The translations under genes were made by a program, and so were the position numbers. Shown here in pieces: positions 7,753 to 49,825 of a stretch of 64,000 nucleotides of DNA. Origin of the DNA: Bacilli bacterium (GTDB taxonomy: Bacteria > Bacillota_I > Bacilli_A > RFN20 > CAG-826); NCBI GenBank assembly GCA_045631885.1, contig JAZQVN010000035.1, forward strand, positions 67,726 to 131,725, read 5' to 3'. Positions within the stretch are counted from its first letter, which is position 1, and every line of letters starts with the position of its first letter. Below the pieces are notes generated by a model. It did no database searches and was not told the origin of the DNA. It saw nothing but the letters and a program-made list of their open reading frames with translations.

Positions 7753-8146
7753 TGGTGGAGCCGAGGAGAGTTGAACTCCTGTCCAGAGAAGGCTCTTCAA
7801 TAACGTCTACAGCTTAGACGGTATGAACTTTAACGTGTTTTGCATATCGACGGACTCTACACGCGAGACAAATTGTAACTTCATTAACGCCGTGTTAGTC
7901 TTCAAGCGTTAACTATCCTTTTGGTATGACACCACTACCAGGCGTGAAAGGCTAAAACCCTGGGTGATGCTGTGCCCGGCGCCTTGCGTCGGTCCCTAAC
8001 GTCGGGTGCTAATTAAGCAGCGCAGAGAACTTGAGCTCTAGGAGCTCTCATATAACTGTTGTCAGTTATTTTTGTTTTGGTTATCACGGTGACCAACCGG
8101 CTGCAGTTAGAGCCTAGCACATCCCTGTCGAAACCAGTACGACCCC
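7753..8146 (-). ncRNA. ssrA: tmRNA (transfer-messenger RNA)
   Basis: Minus-strand 5' end GGGGTCGTACTGGTTTCGACAGGG and 3' end GGACAGGAGTTCAACTCTCCTCGGCTCCACCA (T-arm plus acceptor plus CCA). An internal tag ORF ends ...GCT GCT TAA, with the stop in the loop of a TGCT/AGCA helix. Confidence 0.92.
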
Positions 8147-12892: not shown

Positions 12893-14929
12893 CTATTCCT
12901 CCTCTTCACCTTTACGGTTTCTATCATCGTTTGTCGCTTCGGCTAAGTAAGTATCTAAGACGTTAATCAAAGATTCTCTCACTTCGTCGATGCTTAATTT
13001 TTCAAATGTCACCGCGGACATTGAGTAGTGACCACCACCACCTAATTTTTCCGCTAATAATTGGACGTTAACTGTGCCATCACTACGGCAGCTCATCTTG
13101 ATTTCTCTACTGCTTGTATGACCTAAGACGAATGAAGCGTGGATACCTTTAAATTGTAAGCAAGCGTTACTAGCTTTAGAGATAGTCACTTGGTCAAAGA
13201 TTTCCGCTGGGTTAGCGATTGCGATAACAACACCATAGAATGGGTGTTCCATATTTCTGATGATGTTATTGACGGCTTTATATTCTTCTAAGTCATCTTT
13301 TAAGAAGTCATCGGCCAAGGAGTTATCCGCGCCGTATTCTTTAAGAATCGTGGAGGCTTCAAATGTTCTAATACCGGTATTTCTACTCTTGAAGAAGGAA
13401 GAGTCTAAGAAGATACCAGAGAGCATGATTGTCGCGTATGTTGAAGGCATTTCAATTCTTGGGTTGATAGATGAAAATCTAATAAATTCAGCGATAATTT
13501 CACAAGTTGAAGATGCGGCTGGATCGATGTGGTTGAAGACAGGGTTTTCAATATATTCTTCTGCTCTTCTATGATGGTCGATAACGACAATCTTGGAACA
13601 TCTTTCAATTAATCTAGGCGCCATTGTCATCTTTGGAATATGGACATCAACAACAACTAATAATGTATCTGGGTGAATCAGAGATTCAGAATCTTTTGAG
13701 TTAATAACAATCTTTTCTAATTCTTCTCTAGAGAAGGAAGATGTCATCGCTGATCTAGTTTTTAATTCTGTAGCTTTTAAGTCAGCGACAATCATGGATG
13801 GAATTTGTAATCTATTACAAATGGCTTTAATACCTAAACAGGCACCGAAAGCATCCATATCCATGTTGGTGTGACCCATAATCAAAACGTTAGAGGCATT
13901 TCTTAATAAAGAAATAAGGGAGTCTGCAAGAACACGGATTTTAACTCTGTTACGTTTTTCTTGGGCTTCAGTTTTACCACCGAAGAATTCCATTTCACCA
14001 CCGAAAACGCTGACGACGACTTGGTCACCACCACGGCTAACAGCAATATTTAAAGCACTGTTGGCTAATTCGTTTAATTTAATAACATCTGGGAAGTCAT
14101 GGGCTAAACCGATAGAAAGAGTTAATGGGATATCTTCACCAGAGGAGATTTCTCTAACTTTATCGATGATAGAGAATTTATCTGCTTTCATTCTAGAGAA
14201 TGAGTCGTAGTTACAAAGCATAGAATAGTTATCATCTTTAACTCTTCTTAATAAAATGCCATATTCTTTTGCATACGCAAAGATAACGTTTTTAACTTTA
14301 GTAACAACGTCGTTGAAATCATCTTCACCACGGATAACATCAACATAGTTATCAATCGCTAAAATACCAACGACAGGGGCTTGTTCTTTAGAATAAGCAA
14401 AGATTGATTCAAAGTCTGTGATATCTTTGAAGATCCATAATCCAGCATCCGCTAAATATTTAACTTCATAGTTACGGGAGTTAATCACTGTTTTAACAGT
14501 GGCATCTGGGTTATTAGTTTCTTTTAATATCTTTAAGTCACTACACCAATCAAAGATTGGAGTGTCGATAACTTCAATGTGTCTTTCTTTAAATAAGTCA
14601 TTTGTCCAGATAATGATATCGTTATCATCAGTAACCATTAAACCGATCATCGCGAAGTTATAAGCTTCTTGAACATCACCACCGATAACTTCAGCAGCGC
14701 GCAAGTCTGTCTTTTGTCTTAATGATGAAAGGGATAAGGAAACTACCCAAACAAATAAAGAGTCGATAAAAGCGAGAATGGAGGCACCTAAAATGATGTA
14801 CATATTTGGGATGGTATCGACGTAAAGAAGTTTATTGAAATATAAAACACAAAATGCCGCTATTAAAACTAATTGAACGACAATGATTGTAAATGATGCC
14901 GTTTTGATTCTTTTAATCTTATTTCCCAT
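12893..14929 (-). CDS. gdpP: Cyclic-di-AMP phosphodiesterase GdpP (DHH/DHHA1, membrane anchored)
   Basis: Two N-terminal TM helices, a degenerate GGDEF-like middle, then DHH (MDMDAFG, DHH) and DHHA1 (GGGH). Conserved position upstream of rplI-dnaB. Confidence 0.85.
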   Translation of the reverse strand: MGNKIKRIKTASFTIIVVQLVLIAAFCVLYFNKLLYVDTIPNMYIILGASILAFIDSLFVWVVSLSLSSLRQKTDLRAAEVIGGDVQEAYNFAMIGLMVTDDNDIIIWTNDLFKERHIEVIDTPIFDWCSDLKILKETNNPDATVKTVINSRNYEVKYLADAGLWIFKDITDFESIFAYSKEQAPVVGILAIDNYVDVIRGEDDFNDVVTKVKNVIFAYAKEYGILLRRVKDDNYSMLCNYDSFSRMKADKFSIIDKVREISSGEDIPLTLSIGLAHDFPDVIKLNELANSALNIAVSRGGDQVVVSVFGGEMEFFGGKTEAQEKRNRVKIRVLADSLISLLRNASNVLIMGHTNMDMDAFGACLGIKAICNRLQIPSMIVADLKATELKTRSAMTSSFSREELEKIVINSKDSESLIHPDTLLVVVDVHIPKMTMAPRLIERCSKIVVIDHHRRAEEYIENPVFNHIDPAASSTCEIIAEFIRFSSINPRIEMPSTYATIMLSGIFLDSSFFKSRNTGIRTFEASTILKEYGADNSLADDFLKDDLEEYKAVNNIIRNMEHPFYGVVIAIANPAEIFDQVTISKASNACLQFKGIHASFVLGHTSSREIKMSCRSDGTVNVQLLAEKLGGGGHYSMSAVTFEKLSIDEVRESLINVLDTYLAEATNDDRNRKGEEEE

Positions 14930-19040: not shown

Positions 19041-19703
19041 TTAGTCAATCGCGTAAAAAATTGTATTTTTTTCAAAGAAACCGAAAGCAAAACCAAAGTT
19101 AAGGAATAATGGAATGTTTTCATAGGCTTCAAAAGAGGAACGAGAAGTAAACTCATCTAAAGAGATATTTTCAATATATCCATAAGGATTATATATAGTG
19201 ATATTGTTGTGAGAGATATCTAAACCAGTGATTAAAGAGAAATGGAGTGTCCATTCATTTTCATACTTTGCCGCCCATTCAATCGCGACCGGATTATCAT
19301 TAGATAATGATTGATGAATTTCTTTTAATAACTCATCGTTCTTCAAATAGCTCTTTTTGGTGAATGTCTTATCAATTGAGGCATTAACTTCATTTAAAAA
19401 ACCATTCGAGGAAGAAGTGGAAACTCCTCCACCATTCTTCTTTGCTAAATCGTCTTCCGTCACTTTATTTCCGCAATATGAAGACATCATTTCGACTACC
19501 GCATAGCCACAAGAAATGTGTTGAGTGACTAACTCCACGCCTTCCACTTCTACTTTCGCAGAATACGTATTATCTTCTTTTAAATAATTATAGTCATTCT
19601 TCAAAGAAGAAGTTCTCACTCCAAGGATGATGAAAGGGATCGCAATCGTAAGGGCTAATGAGGTTAAAACAAAGGAAACGATAATAACTATTTTTTTCTT
19701 CAT
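19041..19703 (-). CDS. Membrane-anchored C39-like (papain-fold) cysteine peptidase domain protein
   Basis: N-terminal TM helix, then QHISCGYAVVEMM (candidate catalytic Cys) and WTLHFSLITG (candidate His), resembling Peptidase_C39_2. Confidence 0.45.
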   Translation of the reverse strand: MKKKIVIIVSFVLTSLALTIAIPFIILGVRTSSLKNDYNYLKEDNTYSAKVEVEGVELVTQHISCGYAVVEMMSSYCGNKVTEDDLAKKNGGGVSTSSSNGFLNEVNASIDKTFTKKSYLKNDELLKEIHQSLSNDNPVAIEWAAKYENEWTLHFSLITGLDISHNNITIYNPYGYIENISLDEFTSRSSFEAYENIPLFLNFGFAFGFFEKNTIFYAID

Positions 19704-29239: not shown

Positions 29240-29254
29240 ATAAATAAGTATAGC

Positions 29255-29280
29255 AAAAAGCCGTCCATGATGGACGACTT
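29255..29280 (-). terminator. Terminator; member of the AAAAAGCCG...GGACGACTT hairpin family
   Basis: Minus strand GTCGTCCAT/ATGGACGGC stem (one G-U pair) followed by TTTTT, just after the stop at 29295. Confidence 0.6.
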
Positions 29281-29294
29281 AATTAATTGAATAA

Positions 29295-31938: not shown

Positions 31939-31963
31939 AAAACAGTCCTTAATGGTCATAGTT

Positions 31964-33742
31964 TTATTCAACCGTCACACTTTTGGCTAAGTTTCTTGGT
32001 TTATCAACGTTATATCCTTTTAACAAAGAAACGAAATACGCTAAATAGAAGGCGATTGACGATATGACAACGCTCGATAGATAAAAGGCATAATCATTCA
32101 CCACAATTGTGTCACCGGATTGAGAAAGGCTTTTTGTCACGATGGTATAAACTTTCGCACCTCTAGATTTAACCTCTTCAATGTTGCCTCTCATACTACT
32201 TGCTGTGTCTGGATCAGTAATGAAGACGATAACAGGAAGGTCTTGTTCAATTAATGCGATTGGTCCGTGTTTAAGTTCTCCACCCGGAATTGCTTCACTA
32301 TGGATATAACTAATTTCTTTTAATTTCAAAGAAGCTTCTAAAGAAAGGAAATAATCAAAACCTCGGCCCAAATAGAAGATGTTTTGTTTATCTTTGATAC
32401 CTTCAGCGACACGCATAATCGCTGGTTTATAATGGTCTTGAATATCGTAAATAATATCAATGGATTTATTTAGATCATTAATAAGTTGAGAGTCATTTTT
32501 TAAAGCCGCAGCTAGCATGGATAGCAAAGTAACTTGCGCAACGTATGCTTTTGTAGAAGCCACAGAAACTTCAATTCCACTATAGAGTAATAATGAGTAC
32601 ATTGAGTTCCTATCCAAAGTAGATCCGCCAGTGTTCGTGATAATTAAATTTTTTAAATTATTTTCCTTCACAATTCTTAAACAATGAATCAAGTCAGCGG
32701 TCTCACCGGATTGAGAAATCATGATAATAAATGGCTTTTTGCCAGGAAAAGTCGGATGAAAGGCCCATTCAGACGCAATAAAACGAGAGACAGATTTATC
32801 GTATTTTTCAAAATAACGACCACCAACCAAACCGGCGTGATAAGAAGTTCCACAAGCAATAAAAATAATGTGATCGGATTCTTCTAAATCTCGTATTAGA
32901 CGCGAGTCAAATTGATACTCCCCATTTTGATAATATGTGCTTATCAAACGTTTGACGGTTTGAGGGATCTCTTCAATTTCTTTAATCATATAGTGTGGGT
33001 AACCCTTTAAGTCATGAGAGATTAATTCCACATCTTTAGAAATGGTTTCTTTTTGAATCTCTTCGCCTGCAAGATTATAAAATGTCGCTTTGTCTTTAGT
33101 GATTACACCAAATTCCAAATCATCTAATTCAATGAAAGAATTGGTGTATTCAATCATAGGAGAGGCATCTGACGCAACCAAGTTAAAACCATCACCTAAA
33201 CCAATAACTAAAGGCGATGCATTTTTAATAACAAATAAAGAGTTCGCATCATCACTAGTAAAAAAAGCAAAAGCATAACTACCCTTCACTAACCTCATAA
33301 TCGTTTTAATAGATCCAATAATGTCACCTTTTTCAAGGTAATAGTATTCCAATAAATTTGCGATAATCTCAGTATCCGTTTCACCATAGAAACAATAGCT
33401 CTTTTCCGTGAGGAAATTTCTCAATTCTTTAAAATTCTCAATTACTCCGTTATGAACAAGACAAATCTTTCTATGGAATGATAAATGTGGGTGGGTATTT
33501 AGTTTTGTCGGAGCTCCATGTGTGGCCCATCTTGTATGACCAATCATAATATTGGTGATAATTTCTTTTGGGACTATGGTTAAAAGATGTTCAACACTTC
33601 CGACATCTTTATATATTTGAACACCATTATCAAAAAAAGCCACACCAGCAGAATCATAACCGCGATAATCAAGCATCTTTAATCCTTTAAAAACGTATTT
33701 TTTTGGGCTAATAAAGCCAATAGAGCCAACAATACCACACAT
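31964..33742 (-). CDS. glmS: Glutamine--fructose-6-phosphate aminotransferase
   Basis: MCGIVG N-terminal nucleophile, SIS-domain blocks (GTSYHAG, SQSGETAD), and C-terminal ...SVTVE. Confidence 0.95.
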   Translation of the reverse strand: MCGIVGSIGFISPKKYVFKGLKMLDYRGYDSAGVAFFDNGVQIYKDVGSVEHLLTIVPKEIITNIMIGHTRWATHGAPTKLNTHPHLSFHRKICLVHNGVIENFKELRNFLTEKSYCFYGETDTEIIANLLEYYYLEKGDIIGSIKTIMRLVKGSYAFAFFTSDDANSLFVIKNASPLVIGLGDGFNLVASDASPMIEYTNSFIELDDLEFGVITKDKATFYNLAGEEIQKETISKDVELISHDLKGYPHYMIKEIEEIPQTVKRLISTYYQNGEYQFDSRLIRDLEESDHIIFIACGTSYHAGLVGGRYFEKYDKSVSRFIASEWAFHPTFPGKKPFIIMISQSGETADLIHCLRIVKENNLKNLIITNTGGSTLDRNSMYSLLLYSGIEVSVASTKAYVAQVTLLSMLAAALKNDSQLINDLNKSIDIIYDIQDHYKPAIMRVAEGIKDKQNIFYLGRGFDYFLSLEASLKLKEISYIHSEAIPGGELKHGPIALIEQDLPVIVFITDPDTASSMRGNIEEVKSRGAKVYTIVTKSLSQSGDTIVVNDYAFYLSSVVISSIAFYLAYFVSLLKGYNVDKPRNLAKSVTVE

Positions 33743-33767: not shown

Positions 33768-36335
33768 CTAGAAAATTTCTTTTCGTACAATAGTTTGATT
33801 TTTATCTGGGCCAACTGAAACCATAACTACAGGTACACCCACTTCTTTTTCGATGAATTCGACAAATTTTTTCACATTAACTGGAAGTTCATCATATGTT
33901 TTAACATTACTAATATCTTCACTCCATCCATTTAACTCAGAATAAATTGGTTTACATTCTCTTAACACTGCGTCAGAAGCAGGCAAAGTATTAATTAAGT
34001 GGCCTTTATAATTATAATGAGTACAAACCGCCACTTTTTTAAAACCGGTTAAAACATCCATAAGTGTTAAACAAATATAAGAAATGGAATTAATCTGAAC
34101 TGAATATTTCAAAGCGGGTAAATCCAAAAAGCCAATTCTTCTTGGACGGTGAGTAACTGTACCATATTCATGGCCCTTTTCCCTAATTAAATCACCAATA
34201 TCATTAATTTGTTCGGTTGGGAAAGCCCCTTCCCCCACTCTTGTTTCATAAACTTTAACAACACCCAATATGTCATCAACACCATGACAGCCAATACCGG
34301 TTCCATCAACTGTACCTCCAGAAGTAACGTTTGAAGAAGTAACATATGGATAACTACCAAAATCGACATCCAACAAAGCCCCTTGAGCCCCTTCAAATAA
34401 GATGTTCTTTTTGGCCTTTCTCGCTTCGCCTATCATATAAACGGTATCCGCTACCATCGGGCGAATATAATTAGCGAGTTCAATATATTCTTTAACAGTT
34501 TTATCATAGTCAATTGGATTACCACCCATATCGACGATTTGTTTATTTTTTATCATTAACAAATTTTTATAAAGAGCCGGGAAATCTTCGCTAACAAAAT
34601 CTACCATCCTCATACCAACGCGGCTTATTTTATCTGCATAAGCAGGGCCAATTCCACGTTTAGTAGTGCCGATTCTCTTATCTCCAAGAGCGGCTTCGTT
34701 TAGACGATCTAATTCAATATGGTGGTCGAATAAAACATGCGCTCTATCTGAGACATATATGTTTTTCGCGGAAAATCCCATAGATTTGATTTCTTCCACC
34801 TCTTCTTTAAATGCTCTTGGGTTGATAACCATCCCATTAGCGAGTATGCATTTCACATTTTCATTAAATACACCTGAAGGAATTAATCTTAATGCGTATT
34901 TACGGCCACCAAAAACAATCGTGTGACCGGCATTATTACCACCTTGATATCTAATTACAACATCGGCTTTTTCAGAAAGGAAGTTAGTGATTTTGCCCTT
35001 ACCTTCATCACCCCATTGGGAACCTAAAACAAGTAATGATTTTCCAGGTTTCAATCTCTTATAGATATTATCTATATTCTTAAGATAATAATCTTCATCA
35101 AAACATTCAATAATCTCTTCTTTGTTCAACACCTTGTTAATATGTTCATCTTCAAGTAATAAGTTTTTAAACGGTTGTTTTTCATTTAATGTTTTAAAGG
35201 CAATTGATTGAACTAAATCATAAGCTTCTTCTCTAGACATCCCTTTGTTAATGAGTTTATTTAAAACACCACCAGAATAAGTGATTCCATAATTTAGAAG
35301 AATGTTTTCATTCATTTTTTCAGTATTAACCACTAGGTCTTTACAAATTTGTGTAAATCTTTTAAGCATGTAGTCTAGAAGAGTGCAAGCATCAGGGATA
35401 ATAATACGTTCAGCAGAACTATGAGAAATATCTCTTTCATGCCACAAATTGTTATCTTCTAAAGCCACATCGACATAACTTCTCATAATGCGAGCGCAAC
35501 CACAAATATTTTCAGAACCAATAGGATTCTTTTTGTGTGGCATTGCGCTACTACCTTTTTGTCCTTTTAAAAATAGTTCTTGGACTTCACTAATTTCACT
35601 ACGAGATAGGTGCCTAATTTCAGTTGCCATCTTTTCTAAACAAGAAGCGATTTGTGCTAAGGAAAAAATATAGCCAGCATGTCTATCTCGAGAAAGAACT
35701 TGTGTTGATATTCTCGCAAAATTCATACCTAATTTGTTAGCGACATATTCTTCCACTTCCATCGGAATGTTTGCGTAGTTACCAACAGCGCCAGAAAGTT
35801 TAATTACTTCAACGTTATTTCTTTCATTTAAAAATCTTTCTCGACATCTATTTAATTCATCAAACCAAAGAGCCCATTTAAGACCAAATGAGGTGATTTC
35901 TGCATGCATTCCATGGGTTCTCCCTATGATTGGTTGGTGTTTATACTTTTCCGCCATTACTTTGGTGACAGAAATTAAATTATCCAAATCGTCTAAAAGA
36001 AGATTGTTAGCGTATTTCAAAGTTAAAGACTGGGCACTGTCAACAACATCAGTAGATGTAAGTGAATAATGAAACCATTTTTTCTCTTCGCCTAATTGAT
36101 GCGAAATAGAACGAGTAAAAGCAATAACGTCGTGTTTAGTAACCGCTTCTATTTCTTCAATGCTTTTTAAATCAACATGTGCTTTTTTAACGATAGCTTT
36201 GTAATCTTGTTCGGGCACAATGCCTAATTTAAAATACGCTTCAATAACTGTTTCTTCAATTATGAGGTAGTTATTAAATCTATTTTTATCAGAAAAAATC
36301 TCTTCAAATTCTTTATGGGAATACCTTTTAATCAT
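33768..36335 (-). CDS. purB/purA: Fused adenylosuccinate lyase (N-terminal) / adenylosuccinate synthetase (C-terminal)
   Basis: A single 855-aa frame. Residues 1 to about 428 carry PurB features (SLTSTD, GSSAMPHKKNP). From about residue 433, SLLVLGSQWGDEGKGKITNFL, GGNNAGHT and GTTKRGIGP mark PurA. The junction ...IYKRL-KPGK-SLLVLG has no stop and no ATG. Confidence 0.85.
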   Translation of the reverse strand: MIKRYSHKEFEEIFSDKNRFNNYLIIEETVIEAYFKLGIVPEQDYKAIVKKAHVDLKSIEEIEAVTKHDVIAFTRSISHQLGEEKKWFHYSLTSTDVVDSAQSLTLKYANNLLLDDLDNLISVTKVMAEKYKHQPIIGRTHGMHAEITSFGLKWALWFDELNRCRERFLNERNNVEVIKLSGAVGNYANIPMEVEEYVANKLGMNFARISTQVLSRDRHAGYIFSLAQIASCLEKMATEIRHLSRSEISEVQELFLKGQKGSSAMPHKKNPIGSENICGCARIMRSYVDVALEDNNLWHERDISHSSAERIIIPDACTLLDYMLKRFTQICKDLVVNTEKMNENILLNYGITYSGGVLNKLINKGMSREEAYDLVQSIAFKTLNEKQPFKNLLLEDEHINKVLNKEEIIECFDEDYYLKNIDNIYKRLKPGKSLLVLGSQWGDEGKGKITNFLSEKADVVIRYQGGNNAGHTIVFGGRKYALRLIPSGVFNENVKCILANGMVINPRAFKEEVEEIKSMGFSAKNIYVSDRAHVLFDHHIELDRLNEAALGDKRIGTTKRGIGPAYADKISRVGMRMVDFVSEDFPALYKNLLMIKNKQIVDMGGNPIDYDKTVKEYIELANYIRPMVADTVYMIGEARKAKKNILFEGAQGALLDVDFGSYPYVTSSNVTSGGTVDGTGIGCHGVDDILGVVKVYETRVGEGAFPTEQINDIGDLIREKGHEYGTVTHRPRRIGFLDLPALKYSVQINSISYICLTLMDVLTGFKKVAVCTHYNYKGHLINTLPASDAVLRECKPIYSELNGWSEDISNVKTYDELPVNVKKFVEFIEKEVGVPVVMVSVGPDKNQTIVRKEIF

Positions 36336-45459: not shown

Positions 45460-45531
45460 AAGTAAATCTCCTTGTATTATCACTATATACTAAAAAGGAT
45501 ATCAAAGCCAATTTATTGTATACTGAAATTA

Positions 45532-45623
45532 TTGTCCCAGGACGATGACTATTCTCAAAATTAGGACAGACCCGATTCTCCGATGACGGTCTCCATTTTT
45601 GAGCCACTCAACTTAGAATCGAC
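45532..45623 (+). repeat. ~92-nt islet repeat, copy 1
   Basis: TTGTCCCAGGACGATGAC...GATTCTCCGATGACGGTCTCCAT...AGAATCGAC. Identical to copy 2 at 75/92 positions by ungapped hand alignment. Confidence 0.8.
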
Positions 45624-45652
45624 CCCGACACAACAAGCTGCCCGAATAGCAC

Positions 45653-45697
45653 AAAAAAGCCGCCCATAATGGACGACTTATTCTGCTTTTTGACGTT
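45653..45697 (-). terminator. Left copy of the duplicated rpsR-type terminator (45-bp direct repeat)
   Basis: AAAAAAGCCGCCCATAATGGACGACTTATTCTGCTTTTTGACGTT matches 49548..49592 at 43/45 positions. The hairpin pairs fully, with 2 G-U pairs, only on the minus strand. Confidence 0.75.
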
Positions 45698-45780
45698 TGT
45701 CCCCGTCTAAACCCAACTTCCCTCAAAAGTTCAAACGTGACTTCCCCGATTTCGACATCATCAGTTGTCTGACTGCGTCC

Positions 45781-46182
45781 TTATTTGCTTAACACTCTTG
45801 CTTGCATTTCATCACACCACTTATTCCATTTAATGTCATATTCTTCTTTTGACACTATTCTTTTTAGGAGGTCGGCAGGCGAGAGTATTCCTTGCTTTTT
45901 ACATTCTTTAACACATTCACGGTACATGTTCCAACTCAAATCATCTTCATCCCAAATTAAAGGCACAGATTCTATTCCTGATAATAATGCGACTACCAAT
46001 CGAGTGTGACCATCGGTGATAACGATTTCACCATCTAGCTGTTTAATTGGTATTGACTCAAAATTTGATAGGTCTTTTGGATCGAACCATTTCTTGACGT
46101 TTTCAATTTTTTCATCAGAAATATAAAATTGTGATGGTTGTAAATCTCTTATTGTAAGTGAATGAATATCTATATTTTTCAT
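45781..46182 (-). CDS. Small ParB/Srx-fold (ParB N-terminal-like) domain protein
   Basis: LQPSQFYISDEKIENVKKW...IVITDGHTRLVVAL resembles the ParB-like nuclease/NTPase core (DGHHR-type box). Start set at MKNIDI, since the longer listed ORF starts at a TTG. Lies 14 nt after the Fic stop. Confidence 0.5.
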   Translation of the reverse strand: MKNIDIHSLTIRDLQPSQFYISDEKIENVKKWFDPKDLSNFESIPIKQLDGEIVITDGHTRLVVALLSGIESVPLIWDEDDLSWNMYRECVKECKKQGILSPADLLKRIVSKEEYDIKWNKWCDEMQARVLSK

Positions 46183-46196
46183 GTAAAAACCAAAAA

Positions 46197-47168
46197 TTAT
46201 ATAATCTCCCAATACCCGAATCTTTTGCCGTTAATTCTTTTAATCTTGTTTTCTTTACTCAAAAGAGCTATGACGCTATCAATAGTTCGTGGCGAAACAC
46301 CAATTCTACTTGCCAATTCATCAATACTGATTCTCGGATTAGCTTTGATTAATTCTAAAACGCGTGTTTCCCTTGGGGTGGTTTCATTATCATTAGAGTC
46401 AATACTTATACGCAAGTCTCTATTTCTTAATATGTTATGTTCATTAAGAAGTAAATTTCTTAAAAACATAATAATGTATTTTTTATCATCATATATGCCT
46501 TTACGGATGAACTTGAAATTAGCCCTCACCAAGGCGTTTCTAAAAAACCAGGCATTTTTAGCAAAAACATCATTTGTTACATCATATCCTAGCGATCTTA
46601 GATATTTGATAAAAAATACCGCAGTGGTACGAGTATTTCCTTCCTGAAACGCGTGAATTTGCCAGAGATTAGAAACAAAAGTTGCTAAATGTTCAATGAC
46701 TTTATCCTCGGACAAATCAGCATATTTAAAATTTCTTTCAGTCTCAAAATCATACTCTAGAGTGTTCCTGAGTTCATGATAATCGCCATAAATGACAGAT
46801 CTACCATCAAGAACCCACTCTTTTTTTATGAAGTTATAATCTCTTAATTTTCCAGCATGGTTGAATACGCCTTCAAATAGTTGCTTATGAATGCTAACCA
46901 GTTGTCCAACTGTAAATGTAAAAGAATCGTCAGAAATAATTTGCGCAATCCTATTTGACACAATGTCTGCCTCTTCTGTTCTTGCATCTTCGTTAGGTTT
47001 ATTTTCATAATAAGAACTAATTATTTTATCTAGCTCATCTAAAGATATTTCTCCTTTGACATATCTATCAGCTTGCGATAAAAAATATGTCGAATTCTTA
47101 AGTCCGTCAACATCTTGAAGGCCAATTCCAGTTTCAATTAAATATTTGTTCGAATACTTATTTTCCAT
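46197..47168 (-). CDS. Fic/DOC family protein with a C-terminal winged-helix domain
   Basis: Fic motif variant HAFQEGNTRTTA (canonical HxFx[DE]GNGRxxR) at residues 172-183. The C-terminus TRVLELIKANPRISIDELASRIGVSPRTIDSVIALL looks like a wHTH. Confidence 0.8.
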   Translation of the reverse strand: MENKYSNKYLIETGIGLQDVDGLKNSTYFLSQADRYVKGEISLDELDKIISSYYENKPNEDARTEEADIVSNRIAQIISDDSFTFTVGQLVSIHKQLFEGVFNHAGKLRDYNFIKKEWVLDGRSVIYGDYHELRNTLEYDFETERNFKYADLSEDKVIEHLATFVSNLWQIHAFQEGNTRTTAVFFIKYLRSLGYDVTNDVFAKNAWFFRNALVRANFKFIRKGIYDDKKYIIMFLRNLLLNEHNILRNRDLRISIDSNDNETTPRETRVLELIKANPRISIDELASRIGVSPRTIDSVIALLSKENKIKRINGKRFGYWEII

Positions 47169-47263
47169 AGGAAAATATTATCACATTCAACTTCAAAACG
47201 CAACTCCAAAACGCAATTTAAGTATTTTTGCGCTTTGAAATTATTCACACAAACTCAAACATC

Positions 47264-47289
47264 AAAAAAGTCGCCGCTATGGACGACTT
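47264..47289 (-). repeat. Degenerate third copy of the rpsR-type terminator hairpin (orphan)
   Basis: AAAAAAGTCGCCGCTATGGACGACTT is close to the 45653 and 49548 copies. No minus-strand gene ends immediately upstream of it. Confidence 0.6.
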
Positions 47290-47404
47290 AATTTTCATTG
47301 ATTTAGCCCGATCTACGAGCCCTTACCATTCGCTTTCGACTAATGCCCTGTTGAGGAAGCTACAATTTGAACAACTTAGGCAAATCGCAACTATCCAACA
47401 ACAG

Positions 47405-47496
47405 TTGTCCCAGGACGACGACCGTTCTCCGTTTTAAGACAGATCCGACTCTCCGACGACGGTCTCCATATTTGTTCCACACGACTCAGAATCGAC
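47405..47496 (+). repeat. ~92-nt islet repeat, copy 2
   Basis: TTGTCCCAGGACGACGAC...GACTCTCCGACGACGGTCTCCAT...AGAATCGAC. Confidence 0.8.
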
Positions 47497-47574
47497 GGCG
47501 GCTGGTATTTCGTTAGCTACGACGACGAACGCGCGACGTGGGTCGACCGGGATAGCCTAAAACGAGTCCGATGA
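47494..47574 (+). pseudogene. G+C-rich coding-looking remnant
   Basis: The open frame reads DGGWYFVSYDDERATWVDRDSLKRVR*. There is no start codon or RBS, and its composition is unlike the host genes. Confidence 0.25.
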
Positions 47575-47703
47575 CGATGGATTTATATTAATATAAATAG
47601 TTCAATAAAAGGCACATTATATTGTTTTTTTTATTCATAAAAATACAAAAACTTTTTCATTTGTGGCATGCTTCATAATAATATATAGGCAGGAGGAGCC
47701 AGT

Positions 47704-48426
47704 GTGACCACGATAAAAGAAATTAATGTTGGTAAAATTGATCCATCCATTAAAGGAGTCTTAGAGAAGTTAGTTACTATCAAAGGCTTAGACTTTTATG
47801 TGATTGGTGGTCTTCTATGTCAGTACTACTTAAAAGACCACGCTAGATATACAAAAGACGTTGATATCATTTTCAACGATGAACAAGAAGTCGTGGAAAG
47901 AGAATTAAAGAAAGCATTCGGCGATATTCATTTGTTCTATGCTGAAGATACAGAGAATTTCTATGGTGGCACTTTTACTTGCTTTACCAGAGTTAATGAG
48001 TTATTAGGGCAAATAGAAGGAAAGAAGATTAAATTCTTAAAAGATGTTAAGGGCAAACAATATTCTTATGAAGGCATTAACTTTAGAGGTGTTGATATTG
48101 AATATTGTATCGCTGAAAAGGTTGTCACTTTGTTAAATGAATTATGTAGACCATACAAACATTTAGTGGACCTCTATTCCTTTACTCAAATCGATCAATC
48201 ATTAATCGATAAGAAAGAAATAAAGAGATACATGCTACTAATAAACGCTCATGAGAATGTATATAGAAAAGCACATAATCTTAAGGAATATGAACTTCCT
48301 AAAGAAATTAAGGAAGATAAAGAGTTAAAACCACCAATAGTGGTCCCAACACTACAAAGTAAATATAACGTTTCTAGAGAAGTAATGAAATCTAGTGTGA
48401 ATGAGTGGTTGAAAACCATTATCTAA
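47704..48426 (+). CDS. AbiEii/AbiGii-like nucleotidyltransferase (DUF1814-type toxin family)
   Basis: GTG start with AGGAGG 7 nt upstream. NTase signature VIGGLLCQYYLKDHARYTKDVDIIF (GG-x15-DxD). The 240-aa size fits the family. Confidence 0.65.
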   Translation: MTTIKEINVGKIDPSIKGVLEKLVTIKGLDFYVIGGLLCQYYLKDHARYTKDVDIIFNDEQEVVERELKKAFGDIHLFYAEDTENFYGGTFTCFTRVNELLGQIEGKKIKFLKDVKGKQYSYEGINFRGVDIEYCIAEKVVTLLNELCRPYKHLVDLYSFTQIDQSLIDKKEIKRYMLLINAHENVYRKAHNLKEYELPKEIKEDKELKPPIVVPTLQSKYNVSREVMKSSVNEWLKTII

Positions 48427-48480
48427 AAGTATAATAAAAATATAAAAATCATAATTTAATAATGAAAGGTAGAACAAAGT

Positions 48481-48771
48481 ATGAGAGAAGAATTATTAAA
48501 AGGTTTAAGCAAACAACAACTTGAAAAAGCAAGCAAATGTAAAAACAAAAATGAATTACTTGCTCTTGCCAAAGAAGAAGGCGTGGAATTAACCAGCGAA
48601 CAACTCGAAGCTGTTTCCGGTGGTGCTTGTAGCCCTCATCAACAATTCCGCACAACAGCGTGCCCACAATGTGGTGAACAAATGCAAGGGGAATTCGTAG
48701 AAACCACCCCAGGTGATGGTAAATATCATTTCGTTTGTAAACATTGCGGTTTCGAATGGTTTGAAAAATAA
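48481..48771 (+). CDS. Nif11-like double-glycine leader fused to a zinc-ribbon-like Cys-rich core (96 aa)
   Basis: Leader: MREELLKGLSKQQLEKASKCKNKNELLALAKEEGVELTSEQLEAVSGG. Core: ACSPHQQFRTTACPQCGEQMQGEFVETTPGDGKYHFVCKHCGFEWFEK (CPQC...CKHC knuckles). Lies 54 nt after the NTase gene, and the two share one terminator. Confidence 0.65.
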   Translation: MREELLKGLSKQQLEKASKCKNKNELLALAKEEGVELTSEQLEAVSGGACSPHQQFRTTACPQCGEQMQGEFVETTPGDGKYHFVCKHCGFEWFEK

Positions 48772-48812
48772 TCATTAAAGACCACTAATATGAATATTAG
48801 AAGGGAATAGTT

Positions 48813-48839
48813 TTTGCTATTCCCTTTTTAACAAAATAT
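48813..48839 (+). terminator. Terminator of the NTase / leader-peptide operon
   Basis: GGGAATAG-tttttg-CTATTCCC hairpin followed by TTTTT. Confidence 0.75.
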
Positions 48840-48920
48840 AGCAATTTCCCCCGTCTTGATACGACTAGGTCATCGCGAAGCCATCAAGATTATATTTTCT
48901 CAAAAAGTGCCCTCCGCCAG

Positions 48921-49011
48921 TTGTCCAATTTTGCCACGACTACTTCGACGACGACCATTCTCCTGAAAAGCACGAAACCGACTCTCCGAAGCGGTACTGA
49001 CTTCAGTAATC
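48921..49011 (+). repeat. ~92-nt islet repeat, copy 3 (diverged, with indels)
   Basis: Shares TTGTCC, GACGACGACCATTCTCC, CCGACTCTCCGA (12/12 with copy 2) and GACTTCAGTAATC blocks. Its right end overlaps the last codons and stop of the 49003..49479 gene. Confidence 0.6.
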
Positions 49012-49479
49012 CGTTTTTTCCTTAACCACGATTCGGGATTCGTCAATGTAGCAATCGTCGCCATTCACGTAGCATTCCAAAACCATGTCGGGCTTAAGAA
49101 GCACAGCGTCTTTGTAACTAATATATAGCGAATGCATGAACTGGTTACCCGAATCCCCGCGAAAAGAAACGATAAGTTGGTATCCGTTTCTAACGCGCAA
49201 AACGTTATGCACTTTGCATTCCGTCTTTCTACCGATTTGCATGATTTTTCGACTTTGTCCGCCTTTAATAAGCATCAACAAACCAACTCCCACTAATAGC
49301 AAAGGGGCAAAACCGCCTGCGATTAAAGGAAACAAATAAAGTGGCATTATAAAGCTCTCCATACGGCTGGAAACATAAACCAGAACAACAGTAACGACTG
49401 CAGAAAACACGCCAGCAACCAAACCAAATATCAGTAATAATAGACCGCCTGTACGATTTCCTTGATTCTTCATTTTCAC
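49003..49479 (-). CDS. Membrane protein with a C-terminal soluble beta-rich domain; compositionally foreign
   Basis: 158-aa ORF with 2-3 N-terminal TM helices. Its codon usage is visibly richer in G/C than its neighbours, and it uses a TGA stop. Confidence 0.55.
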   Translation of the reverse strand: MKMKNQGNRTGGLLLLIFGLVAGVFSAVVTVVLVYVSSRMESFIMPLYLFPLIAGGFAPLLLVGVGLLMLIKGGQSRKIMQIGRKTECKVHNVLRVRNGYQLIVSFRGDSGNQFMHSLYISYKDAVLLKPDMVLECYVNGDDCYIDESRIVVKEKTDY

Positions 49480-49547: not shown

Positions 49548-49592
49548 AAAAAAGCCGCCCATAATGGACGACTTTTGCTGCTTTTTGACGTT
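49548..49592 (-). terminator. rpsR terminator; right copy of the 45-bp direct repeat
   Basis: Lies 5 nt after the rpsR stop. Minus strand GTCGTCCAT/ATGGGCGGC stem followed by TTTTTT. Confidence 0.8.
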
Positions 49593-49597
49593 ACTAA

Positions 49598-49825
49598 TTA
49601 GTCAGCAACGTATGGGAGAAGAGCCATGAATCTTGCATTTTTGATTGCTTTAGCAACTTCTCTTTGATGTTTCGCACATGTGCCTGTTGCTCTACGGCTG
49701 GAAATTTTGCCGTTAGGAGTAATCATGGATTTTAATGTTTCAACATCTTTGTAATCAATGAATTTTGATTTAGATTTGCAGAACACACAAACTTTCTTGT
49801 GTGGTCTCACTTTTTTGAATGCCAT
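49598..49825 (-). CDS. rpsR: 30S ribosomal protein S18
   Basis: KKVCVFC...IDYKDV..L...I...GKI..RR.TG.CAKHQR. Confidence 0.95.

Follow-up and report, generated by a model that had tools for sequence, protein, structure and literature searches.

A stretch of 64,000 nucleotides (nt) from contig JAZQVN010000035.1 of a Bacilli bacterium (assembly GCA_045631885.1, positions 67,726 to 131,725; referred to as the window) contains three direct copies of a non-coding sequence of ~92 nt in a gene islet next to rpsR, the gene of ribosomal protein S18. This raises the question of what the copies are and why they partition the islet into modules. In an earlier note on the same DNA they had been likened to attachment-site (att)-type scars or cassette boundaries, with a structured RNA as an alternative. 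According to our analysis, the copies are likely (probability about 0.68) to be cis-acting ends of site-specific, cut-and-paste-type, Tn7-like transposable elements beside rpsR. The repeats would split the islet into modules because elements without a transposase gene stack at a fixed spot after rpsR.

The three same-strand copies were confirmed by a pattern scan of the window. Copy 1 (45532-45623) and copy 2 (47405-47496) were identical at 75 of 92 positions without gaps (blastn E 5e-18), as had been reported. Their 17 differences were distributed 6/4/7 over the three codon phases, which bears out the lack of codon periodicity; the description of these differences as mostly transitions holds by a bare majority (10 of 17). 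Copy 3 (48921-49011) proved to be a partial copy with indels, as previously described. It retained only the 43-nt core (48947-48989, 74-77% identity with the other copies), contained ~20 extra nt after TTGTCC and was truncated on its right side. The core pattern GACGAYGACNNTTCTC-N15-CCGAYTCTCCGA, with up to 3 mismatches allowed, had three matches in the window, which were the three copies; 0 of 100 dinucleotide shuffles matched. All copies were located on the plus strand, in inverted orientation relative to rpsR. Homology of copy 2 extended to ~47551 (71% identity to the related locus L011), and two more related end sequences were found beside the copies, at 45698-45749 (+) and 47403-47353 (-).

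The lysS-rpsR region was fetched from 80 species, and rpsR was mapped by tblastn in 70 loci (numbered with the prefix L). The related metagenome-assembled genomes (MAGs) were labelled Bacilli or Erysipelotrichaceae, and the sequencing runs containing window sequence were bovine gut metagenomes. Three types of sequence were found after rpsR: R, which occurred beside Fic and other genes, the A+T-rich type S, and E, the type of the repeat copies. R sequence began 7-12 nt past the rpsR stop in L001, L003, L004, L005, L007, L010, L014, L015, L017, L027, and L034. In 20 of 69 related loci, element ends started 7-13 nt past the stop and always on the rpsR strand. A hidden Markov model (HMM) of all ends, applied to the window together with 1.4 Mb of loci, found ends exclusively downstream of rpsR. 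Typically, a minus-strand end was found with a plus-strand end a few nt behind it, and the proximal head together with the next inverted end delimited elements of 0.5-4 kb. Ends of the same element showed an in-register inverted identity of 0.47-0.57, compared with a null value of 0.265 ± 0.068.

Perfect 5-bp target duplications flanked 4 independent elements among ~14 candidates (Table 1), where we estimate that ~0.02 would be expected by chance. An empty site was present in L032 and L033, with the sequence TAA-TTACGGT-CTTCA-AAAAAGTAAG. The filled site in L027 was TAA-TTACGGT-CTTCA-[TGT...ACA]-CTTCA-AAAAAGTAAG, with the right flank exactly as in the empty sites. The elements in L027 and L052 belonged to different classes and were flanked by the identical 5-mer CTTCA in the same orientation. 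Where ends abutted, the spacers measured 5, 5, 5, 5, 5, 6, 6, 4, 2, and 8 nt, which is mostly 5 nt and therefore as expected from serial insertion into one target. The abutted pairs included copy 2 and the R end in the window, as well as an E-class end separated by CATTA from an R-related end of the type called F on a rumen contig. By these features, the sister classes R and S are terminal inverted repeats of transposable elements.

The S class also included small units of ~0.5 kb without an open reading frame (ORF), namely L029 5335-5840 and 5846-6400, L052 2437-2967 and 2973-3580, L125 1796-2306, and L124 2425-2900. Between the terminator and the distal end, they contained ~350 nt of strongly C-rich DNA in which conserved blocks occurred. 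The C-rich core was considered as a guide or structured RNA and rejected, having no Rfam match and no fold signal. Likewise, ORFs of ~700 amino acids after R ends were considered as transposases and rejected: the ORF in L027 encodes a lipoprotein (signal peptide, lipobox) without a Pfam match.

The E copies shared the anatomy of these ends. E, R, and S aligned without gaps from a common 5'-TGT, and the in-register identity between E and R was 49%, compared with 28.5 ± 3.5% for column shuffles (0 of 2000). This similarity was present at shift 0 only. The layout of an end consisted of 5'-TGT, 5 nt, and then two or three direct sub-repeats, presumably transposase-binding sites. The 3' halves of the sub-repeats were class-specific and matched within a class (TTCTCC in E, TTCCCTC in R/F, and ATTC(A/T)CA in S). 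Conserved blocks near positions 19-27 and 45-51 were present in all ends.

The earlier note had reckoned with the case that no further copies exist. Further copies were found. A metagenome scan yielded two more loci, L011 and L012. In L012, the islet's lipoprotein gene was accompanied by a shortened copy 1. L011 contained a full copy with the spacer of copy 3 and the inner flank of copy 2, arranged head-to-head with R-like sequence at a distance of 6 nt. In the more distant relatives L088 and L091, E-like sequence on the same strand as rpsR began 7 and 13 nt past its stop, and L017 had an internal E-like copy (13674) ~1 kb downstream of rpsR as well as a head of the copy 3 type without a core (13560-13605). 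An HMM built from the L088, L091, and L017 sequences alone matched, in register, copy 1 over its full length (E 3.2e-6), copy 2 (E 1.3e-4), and copy 3 (E 0.03, model positions 9-49), and nothing else in the 64 kb. In some rumen strains (runs X1, X4, and X6), heads of the copy 1 and copy 3 types had lost the inner ~81 nt with all sub-repeats and were joined straight to the flank (window 45550-45652 and 48956 onward). The loss of ~81 nt may have occurred between GAC repeats.

The region next to rpsR behaved as a hotspot. The interval from rpsR to the LysR-type gene was entirely variable, and relatives or rumen contigs carried other modules or none. On contigs encoding an identical S18 protein, rpsR was joined directly to position 47396, to 42656, or to unrelated DNA. 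Joints on rumen contigs were located at 47403-47407/49596-7, 45682/49597, and 45680/47297. Contigs from several runs ceased to match exactly at 45532/3, 45698, 47403, and 47405/6, with two outside partners at copy 1, several at 45698, and at least three at 47403. The proposal that the copies mark module borders of a serially accreted islet was thereby supported, since the breakpoints in relatives and rumen contigs fall at these sequences. In addition, many MAG contigs (L013, L017-L019, L023, L024, and others) ended 1-3 kb after rpsR; these assembly breaks are probably due to strain-level heterogeneity of the islet.

Taken as a mechanism, elements would insert in one orientation ~10 bp downstream of the rpsR stop and duplicate 5 bp. 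Repeated insertion at one spot would displace older elements outwards. This would leave an array in which ends alternate with modules of cargo (Fic, nucleotidyltransferase, bacteriocin-like peptides, lipoproteins, and toxin-antitoxin genes). We infer that the E class works like R and S. The enzyme would be a DDE transposase of the Tn7/Tn5053 type, working in trans together with a TnsD/TniQ-like targeting protein. The E copies are most likely orphan ends left by E-class elements that have decayed, because all of them face the same way, with their interior towards rpsR, and have no inverted partner. They are probably inert relics that are no longer active.

Several observations weigh against this interpretation. 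The three E copies are direct repeats without inverted partners, and no complete element of the E class flanked by a target duplication was seen in the loci. An HMM built without E sequences did not detect the E copies, so that the link of E to R and S consists of in-register similarity, position, and abutment only. The spacer between copy 2 and the R end is 2 nt instead of 5 nt, and the Fic element of the window has no matching target duplication (ACAAC versus AACGT). No transposase, integrase, or recombinase domain was found in window ORFs of ≥100 amino acids. The ORFs of L015 and the precomputed Pfam annotations of L122-L134 likewise contained none. As a weaker negative, no transposase or integrase was among the top 25 Pfam families listed for the 62 downstream ORFs of relatives. 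The one exception in these modules of relatives was an IS200-type Y1 transposase. Finally, L015 contained the last 75 nt of rpsR, with stop and spacer, a second time (14266-14343, 72% identical), before an internal R end and after a HipBA module. This foreign rpsR 3' fragment looks more like the product of homologous or integrase-type recombination; because it precedes an internal R end, such recombination also appears to shape the arrays. In the window ORFs of ≥100 amino acids, the L015 modules, and the L122-L134 genes, no rve, TnsA, AAA+ TnsC, or TniQ domain was found.

The window contains five ends, designated E1 (copy 1), F-end, R, E2 (copy 2), and E3 (copy 3) (Table 1). The F-end was matched at E 9e-6 by an HMM from which window and E sequences had been left out, and its counterpart in L125 bears the target duplication AATTT. 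The ends of the Fic element had an in-register inverted-repeat identity of 0.47 (null 0.265), and an equivalent element of 1,709 bp with a perfect 5-bp target duplication was present in L125, L126, L127, and L131. Within the window element the order is R end, terminator T_b, a Fic-helix-turn-helix (HTH) gene (47168-46197; Pfam Fic plus HTH), the ParB/Srx-like ORF143 (46212-45781), and F-end. Judged by these sequences, the borders of the Fic/ParB-like module are its own ends R and F rather than copies 1 and 2; between copy 1 and this module lies a duplicated terminator. The module map of the earlier note was accurate in placing the copies at module borders and has to be corrected for the Fic/ParB-like pair, which has its own ends at 45698 and 47403.

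The duplicated terminator T_c was identical at 43 of 45 positions to 49548-49592 (T_a), including 15 nt upstream of the hairpin. The Fic element was probably inserted at AACGT, because the outer flank of the F-end (AACGT + T_c) repeats the rpsR-side sequence TTAGT-AACGT + T_a. Later events would have placed the block of ORF158 and the nucleotidyltransferase between the Fic element and rpsR, probably including homologous exchange between terminator copies. Directly 3' of the rpsR stop in the window, no element end was detected. On the minus strand, the resulting order is lysS, rpsF, ssb, rpsR (stop 49598), T_a, ORF158, copy 3, the nucleotidyltransferase and peptide genes (plus strand), copy 2, ~105 nt plus T_b, Fic-HTH, ORF143, T_c, copy 1, a 918-amino-acid lipoprotein gene, and a convergent LysR-type gene.

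Table 1. Features of the rpsR islet in the window, followed by related elements with perfect target duplications in other loci
Feature	Coordinates	Length (bp)	Strand	Description
E1 (copy 1)	45533..45623		+	E-class transposon-end-like sequence; TGT at 45533; 8-bp terminal segment TGTCCCAG; no partner end
E1 sub-repeats				..TATTCTC, ..GATTCTCC, ..GGTCTCC; interior faces rpsR
T_c	45653..45697		-	Copy of rpsR-proximal flank and intrinsic terminator AACGTCAAAAAGCAG..GTCGTCCATTATGGGCGGC-T6; adjoins outside of distal end of Fic element
F-end	45698..45749		+	Distal terminal inverted repeat of Fic element (TGTCCCCGTCTAAACCCAACTTCCCTCAAAAGTTCAAACGTGACTTCCCC); terminus at 45698
Fic element	45698..47403	1,706	-	Complete non-autonomous element
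R end	47259..47403		-	rpsR-proximal end of Fic element; TGT at 47403; contains T_b 47270-47299; R HMM E 2.5e-38
E2 (copy 2) and G+C-rich inner flank	47406..47575		+	E-class end, head-to-head with R end; terminus at 47406; E-proximal HMM E 1.3e-4
AbiEii-like nucleotidyltransferase	47704-48426		+	Inner side of E2; Pfam match; without AbiEi partner gene
96-amino-acid peptide	48481-48771		+	Nif11-like leader and Cys-rich core; inner side of E2; Pfam match
E3 (copy 3)	48922..49011		+	Degenerate E-class end; terminus at 48922; ~20 nt inserted after TGTCC; two sub-repeats kept, remainder lost
ORF158	49003..49479		-	Predicted membrane protein; inner side of E3
Insertion-site position and T_a	49548..49597		-	Directly 3' of rpsR stop (TTAGT AACGT ...)
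rpsR (S18)	49598..49825		-	Last gene of rpsF-ssb-rpsR; Pfam match; elements insert beside it
L027 element		2,585		Lipoprotein cargo; target duplication CTTCA
L052 element		531		Non-coding; target duplication CTTCA
L084 element		1,151		Target duplication CAAAA
L125 element		1,709		Fic plus ORF133; target duplication AATTT

The termini of E2 and R are separated by positions 47404-47405, and the E2 region was 71% identical to L011 over ~290 nt. The nucleotidyltransferase and peptide genes on the inner side of E2 had several alternative flanks in metagenomes. The first 9 codons of the nucleotidyltransferase gene and its promoter are recombinant, because identity to the common rumen allele begins at 47731. 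The 96-amino-acid peptide has a GG cleavage motif and a zinc-ribbon-like core, resembling a bacteriocin-type precursor or one of a ribosomally synthesized and post-translationally modified peptide. It was also present in L011 and L012, with three tandem paralogues in L015 (17151-17960). Its ORF had the highest metagenome depth in the region and was transcribed; a C39-like peptidase ORF listed with it is located at 19041-19703. ORF158 had no family match and was nearly absent from the examined metagenomes (depth ≤0.8). Exact protein look-ups of ORF158, Fic, and the 96-amino-acid peptide returned no record. Four intrinsic terminators with a nearly common stem (GTCGTCCAT..ATGGGCGGC plus T run) were observed at 29252-29284, 45653-45697, 47270-47299, and 49548-49592 (-), and such a terminator is seemingly carried just inside the rpsR-proximal end of elements of this family. 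Elsewhere in the window, an ORF of 855 amino acids (33768-36335, -) encodes an unusual PurB-PurA fusion with Lyase_1, ADSL_C, and adenylosuccinate synthetase domains, and the gene of the transfer-messenger RNA (tmRNA; 7753-8146, -) has an unusual predicted tag, DNSYMRAPRAQVLCAA, and no adjoining integrase or island.

The copies could alternatively be attL/attR-type remnants of islands that were integrated at the rpsR 3' end by a tyrosine or serine recombinase, with the integrase genes since lost. We kept this as the main rival because integrases are known to target the rpsR 3' end in staphylococci (PMC8407400), and we consider it unlikely. The documented hub involves 15-bp direct repeats (PMC8407400), the modules of the window are bounded by direct repeats, the displaced rpsR 3' fragment of L015 precedes an internal repeat, and the heads have a short dyad symmetry (GTCC-CA-GGAC). 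However, the terminal sequences of the sister classes are inverted, not direct. The flanking 5-mers vary by site (CTTCA, AATTT, CAAAA) and are present as a single copy in the empty site, whereas an integrase needs a constant shared core. No integrase was found in the window ORFs or the modules of relatives that were examined. The core, R, and S patterns had 0 matches in viral contigs, and the 29 matches of the 17-nt E head in viral contigs of 62% G+C are attributed to chance because none extends beyond ~20 nt. An att-type scar in the integrase sense, as proposed in the earlier note, is therefore not what the related R and S sequences point to; they have the form of terminal inverted repeats with 5-bp target duplications.

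It is also improbable that the copies are passive linkers, that is, conserved intergenic DNA made of a terminator and a promoter, between which modules are shuffled by homologous recombination after DNA uptake and without a dedicated enzyme. Heads, cores, and flanks do form a heavy mosaic, the joints 45680/47297 and 45682/49597 fall between terminator copies, T_a and T_c are 96% identical, and the rpsR fragment of L015 would fit. This process does not produce 5-bp target duplications, and it leaves unexplained the exact TGT...ACA termini and the filled and empty sites that differ by one element. Homologous recombination probably acts on the arrays as a secondary process.

A structured RNA or regulatory element, such as a small RNA, a 5' or 3' untranslated-region element, or an RNA antitoxin to toxin-like genes nearby, would account for the G+C-rich islands within A+T-rich DNA, the short possible stems, and the adjoining terminators. 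Searches of the window and the loci with Rfam 15, at gathering and permissive thresholds (E up to 5), had the tmRNA as the sole match. RNAalifold on R, S, E, and pooled alignments of both strands gave energies of 0 to -6 without covariation or a consensus structure. Neither the 326-nt unit around copy 2 nor its homologue in L011 folded better than shuffles (z = -1.6), and DNA fold z-scores of the 92-nt copies on both strands were -0.8 to +2.2, with copy 2 folding worse than 198 of 200 and 200 of 200 shuffles on the two strands. A long hairpin between reverse-complemented E and R was considered and was absent from the predicted folds. In rumen metatranscriptome contigs, the nucleotidyltransferase gene, the peptide gene, and rpsR were covered, and the copies were present at trace depth only. 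The RNA alternative of the earlier note, which lacks an Rfam match, a shared fold, and more than trace RNA coverage, is very unlikely.

Least probable of all, the copies might be pseudogene fragments of a small coding gene, e.g., of an Asp-rich or SH3-like C terminus, as the L011 region is open in all three hand-checked frames and some variants differ by an ~80-nt indel that may be in-frame, but both best frames of copy 1, copy 2, and the L012 copy contain stops, codon periodicity is absent, and a protein search with open frames joined by X spacers found nothing among 5.8 billion proteins at E ≤ 0.01. The copies are neither structured RNA nor coding fragments, and their description as non-coding stands.

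The preferred reading as Tn7-like ends was compared with known systems. Tn7 and its relatives duplicate 5 bp of target, carry an array of binding sites at each end, and use a TnsD/TniQ protein to control site and orientation (PMC11406308). Like Tn7 at attTn7 downstream of glmS, the rpsR elements follow the stop of a conserved essential gene at a short, constant distance and in one orientation, and they share 5'-TGT...ACA-3' termini, an 8-bp terminal segment followed by tandem binding-site repeats of ~22-27 bp, many of which start with GAC(A/G) (in Tn7, TGTGGGCG-GACAA...), the 5-bp target duplication, and the pile-up into islands of cargo and defence genes. Unlike Tn7, the rpsR elements have 2-3 sub-repeats per end, use rpsR as attachment gene, and contain no tnsA, tnsB, tnsC, or tnsD in any of ~25 occupied sites; all are non-autonomous, down to the 0.5-kb non-coding units. 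The duplication was observed for R, S, and related classes and was not seen for the E class or the Fic element of the window. Inverted TGT ends and insertion specific for site and orientation are present, as read from the DNA, and heteromeric transposition genes inside an element were not found in the modules examined. We did not file the rpsR elements under the Tn7 family because its defining genes were sought and not found. In the window, the site downstream of glmS (31964-33742, -) consists of ~25 nt of intergenic DNA (31939-31963) beside a convergent gene, and this canonical Tn7 position is unoccupied.

Tn5053/Tn402 and Mu-like DDE elements have TGT termini, several sub-terminal transposase sites, and a 5-bp duplication, as in the rpsR elements. 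They target res sites or insert nearly at random, and they are not known to home to sequence directly 3' of ribosomal protein genes. Unlike Tn5053/Tn402, the rpsR elements lack tniA, tniB, and tniQ genes. Phage-inducible islands of the SaPI4 family (Staphylococcus aureus pathogenicity islands) occupy the rpsR 3' end in staphylococci with a constant 15-bp direct repeat overlapping rpsR (PMC8407400). They resemble the rpsR elements in using rpsR as a hub for mobile islands in Bacilli and in carrying toxin-antitoxin cargo. They differ in having a tyrosine integrase, of which the rpsR elements have none; the latter are located 7-13 nt past the stop and have inverted ends and variable 5-bp duplications. 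The combination of an integrase and a constant direct-repeat core was not found in the window or in the modules of relatives.

Arrays of integron attC sites resemble the islet in having short variable repeats of similar layout between single-gene modules of one orientation. In contrast to attC, the repeats of the islet lack hairpin potential (z -0.8 to +2.2), and the window contains no integron integrase; the modules, unlike integron cassettes, have their own promoters and terminators, and target duplications are present. Miniature inverted-repeat transposable elements (MITEs) and solo ends share with the rpsR elements the non-autonomous derivatives and the orphan ends as intergenic repeats, and the 0.5-kb S units are MITE-like. 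However, MITEs scatter genome-wide, whereas the ends of the rpsR elements occur at one attachment site only (1.4 Mb scanned), many of them with cargo genes. A by-eye comparison with Firmicutes dif sites of the Xer system (28-bp XerC/XerD, 11-6-11) gave no convincing match, and the 5-bp duplications argue against Xer-dependent dif modules.

The 43-nt core pattern had 0 matches in a genome contig collection. Blastn of 45526-45760 (E1, T_c, and F-end) against plasmids and of 47255-47580 (R end and E2) against phages gave no match. In full-text literature searches on Tn7-like attachment sites at rpsR or ribosomal protein genes, no report of an rpsR attachment site was found.

Beyond the copies themselves, we put forward tentatively, and at somewhat less than even odds, that uncultured rumen Bacilli harbour an undescribed Tn7-style lineage that lands at the rpsR 3' flank. 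It would be almost entirely non-autonomous, comprise at least three end classes (E, R/F, and S), and range from 0.5-kb non-coding units to 4-kb cargo carriers. The elements would be moved in trans, either by a transposase whose gene lies elsewhere or by machinery beyond current profiles, and together would build the islet of defence, toxin, and bacteriocin genes.

In practical terms, the three repeats are most likely inert relics, neither a new RNA nor a new recombination system, and the end family merits a targeted transposase search. The signature of TGT, 5 nt, and class-specific sub-repeats 7-13 nt after rpsR, with a 5-bp duplication, is searchable in MAGs. If the reading is true, it explains the assembly breaks directly after rpsR in these organisms. 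rpsR would then be one more safe-harbour site of homing transposons, next to glmS, tRNA genes, and a small number of others, and genes for Fic, nucleotidyltransferase, HipBA, bacteriocin-like peptides, and lipoproteins would be traded as small transposase-less units in this rumen lineage.

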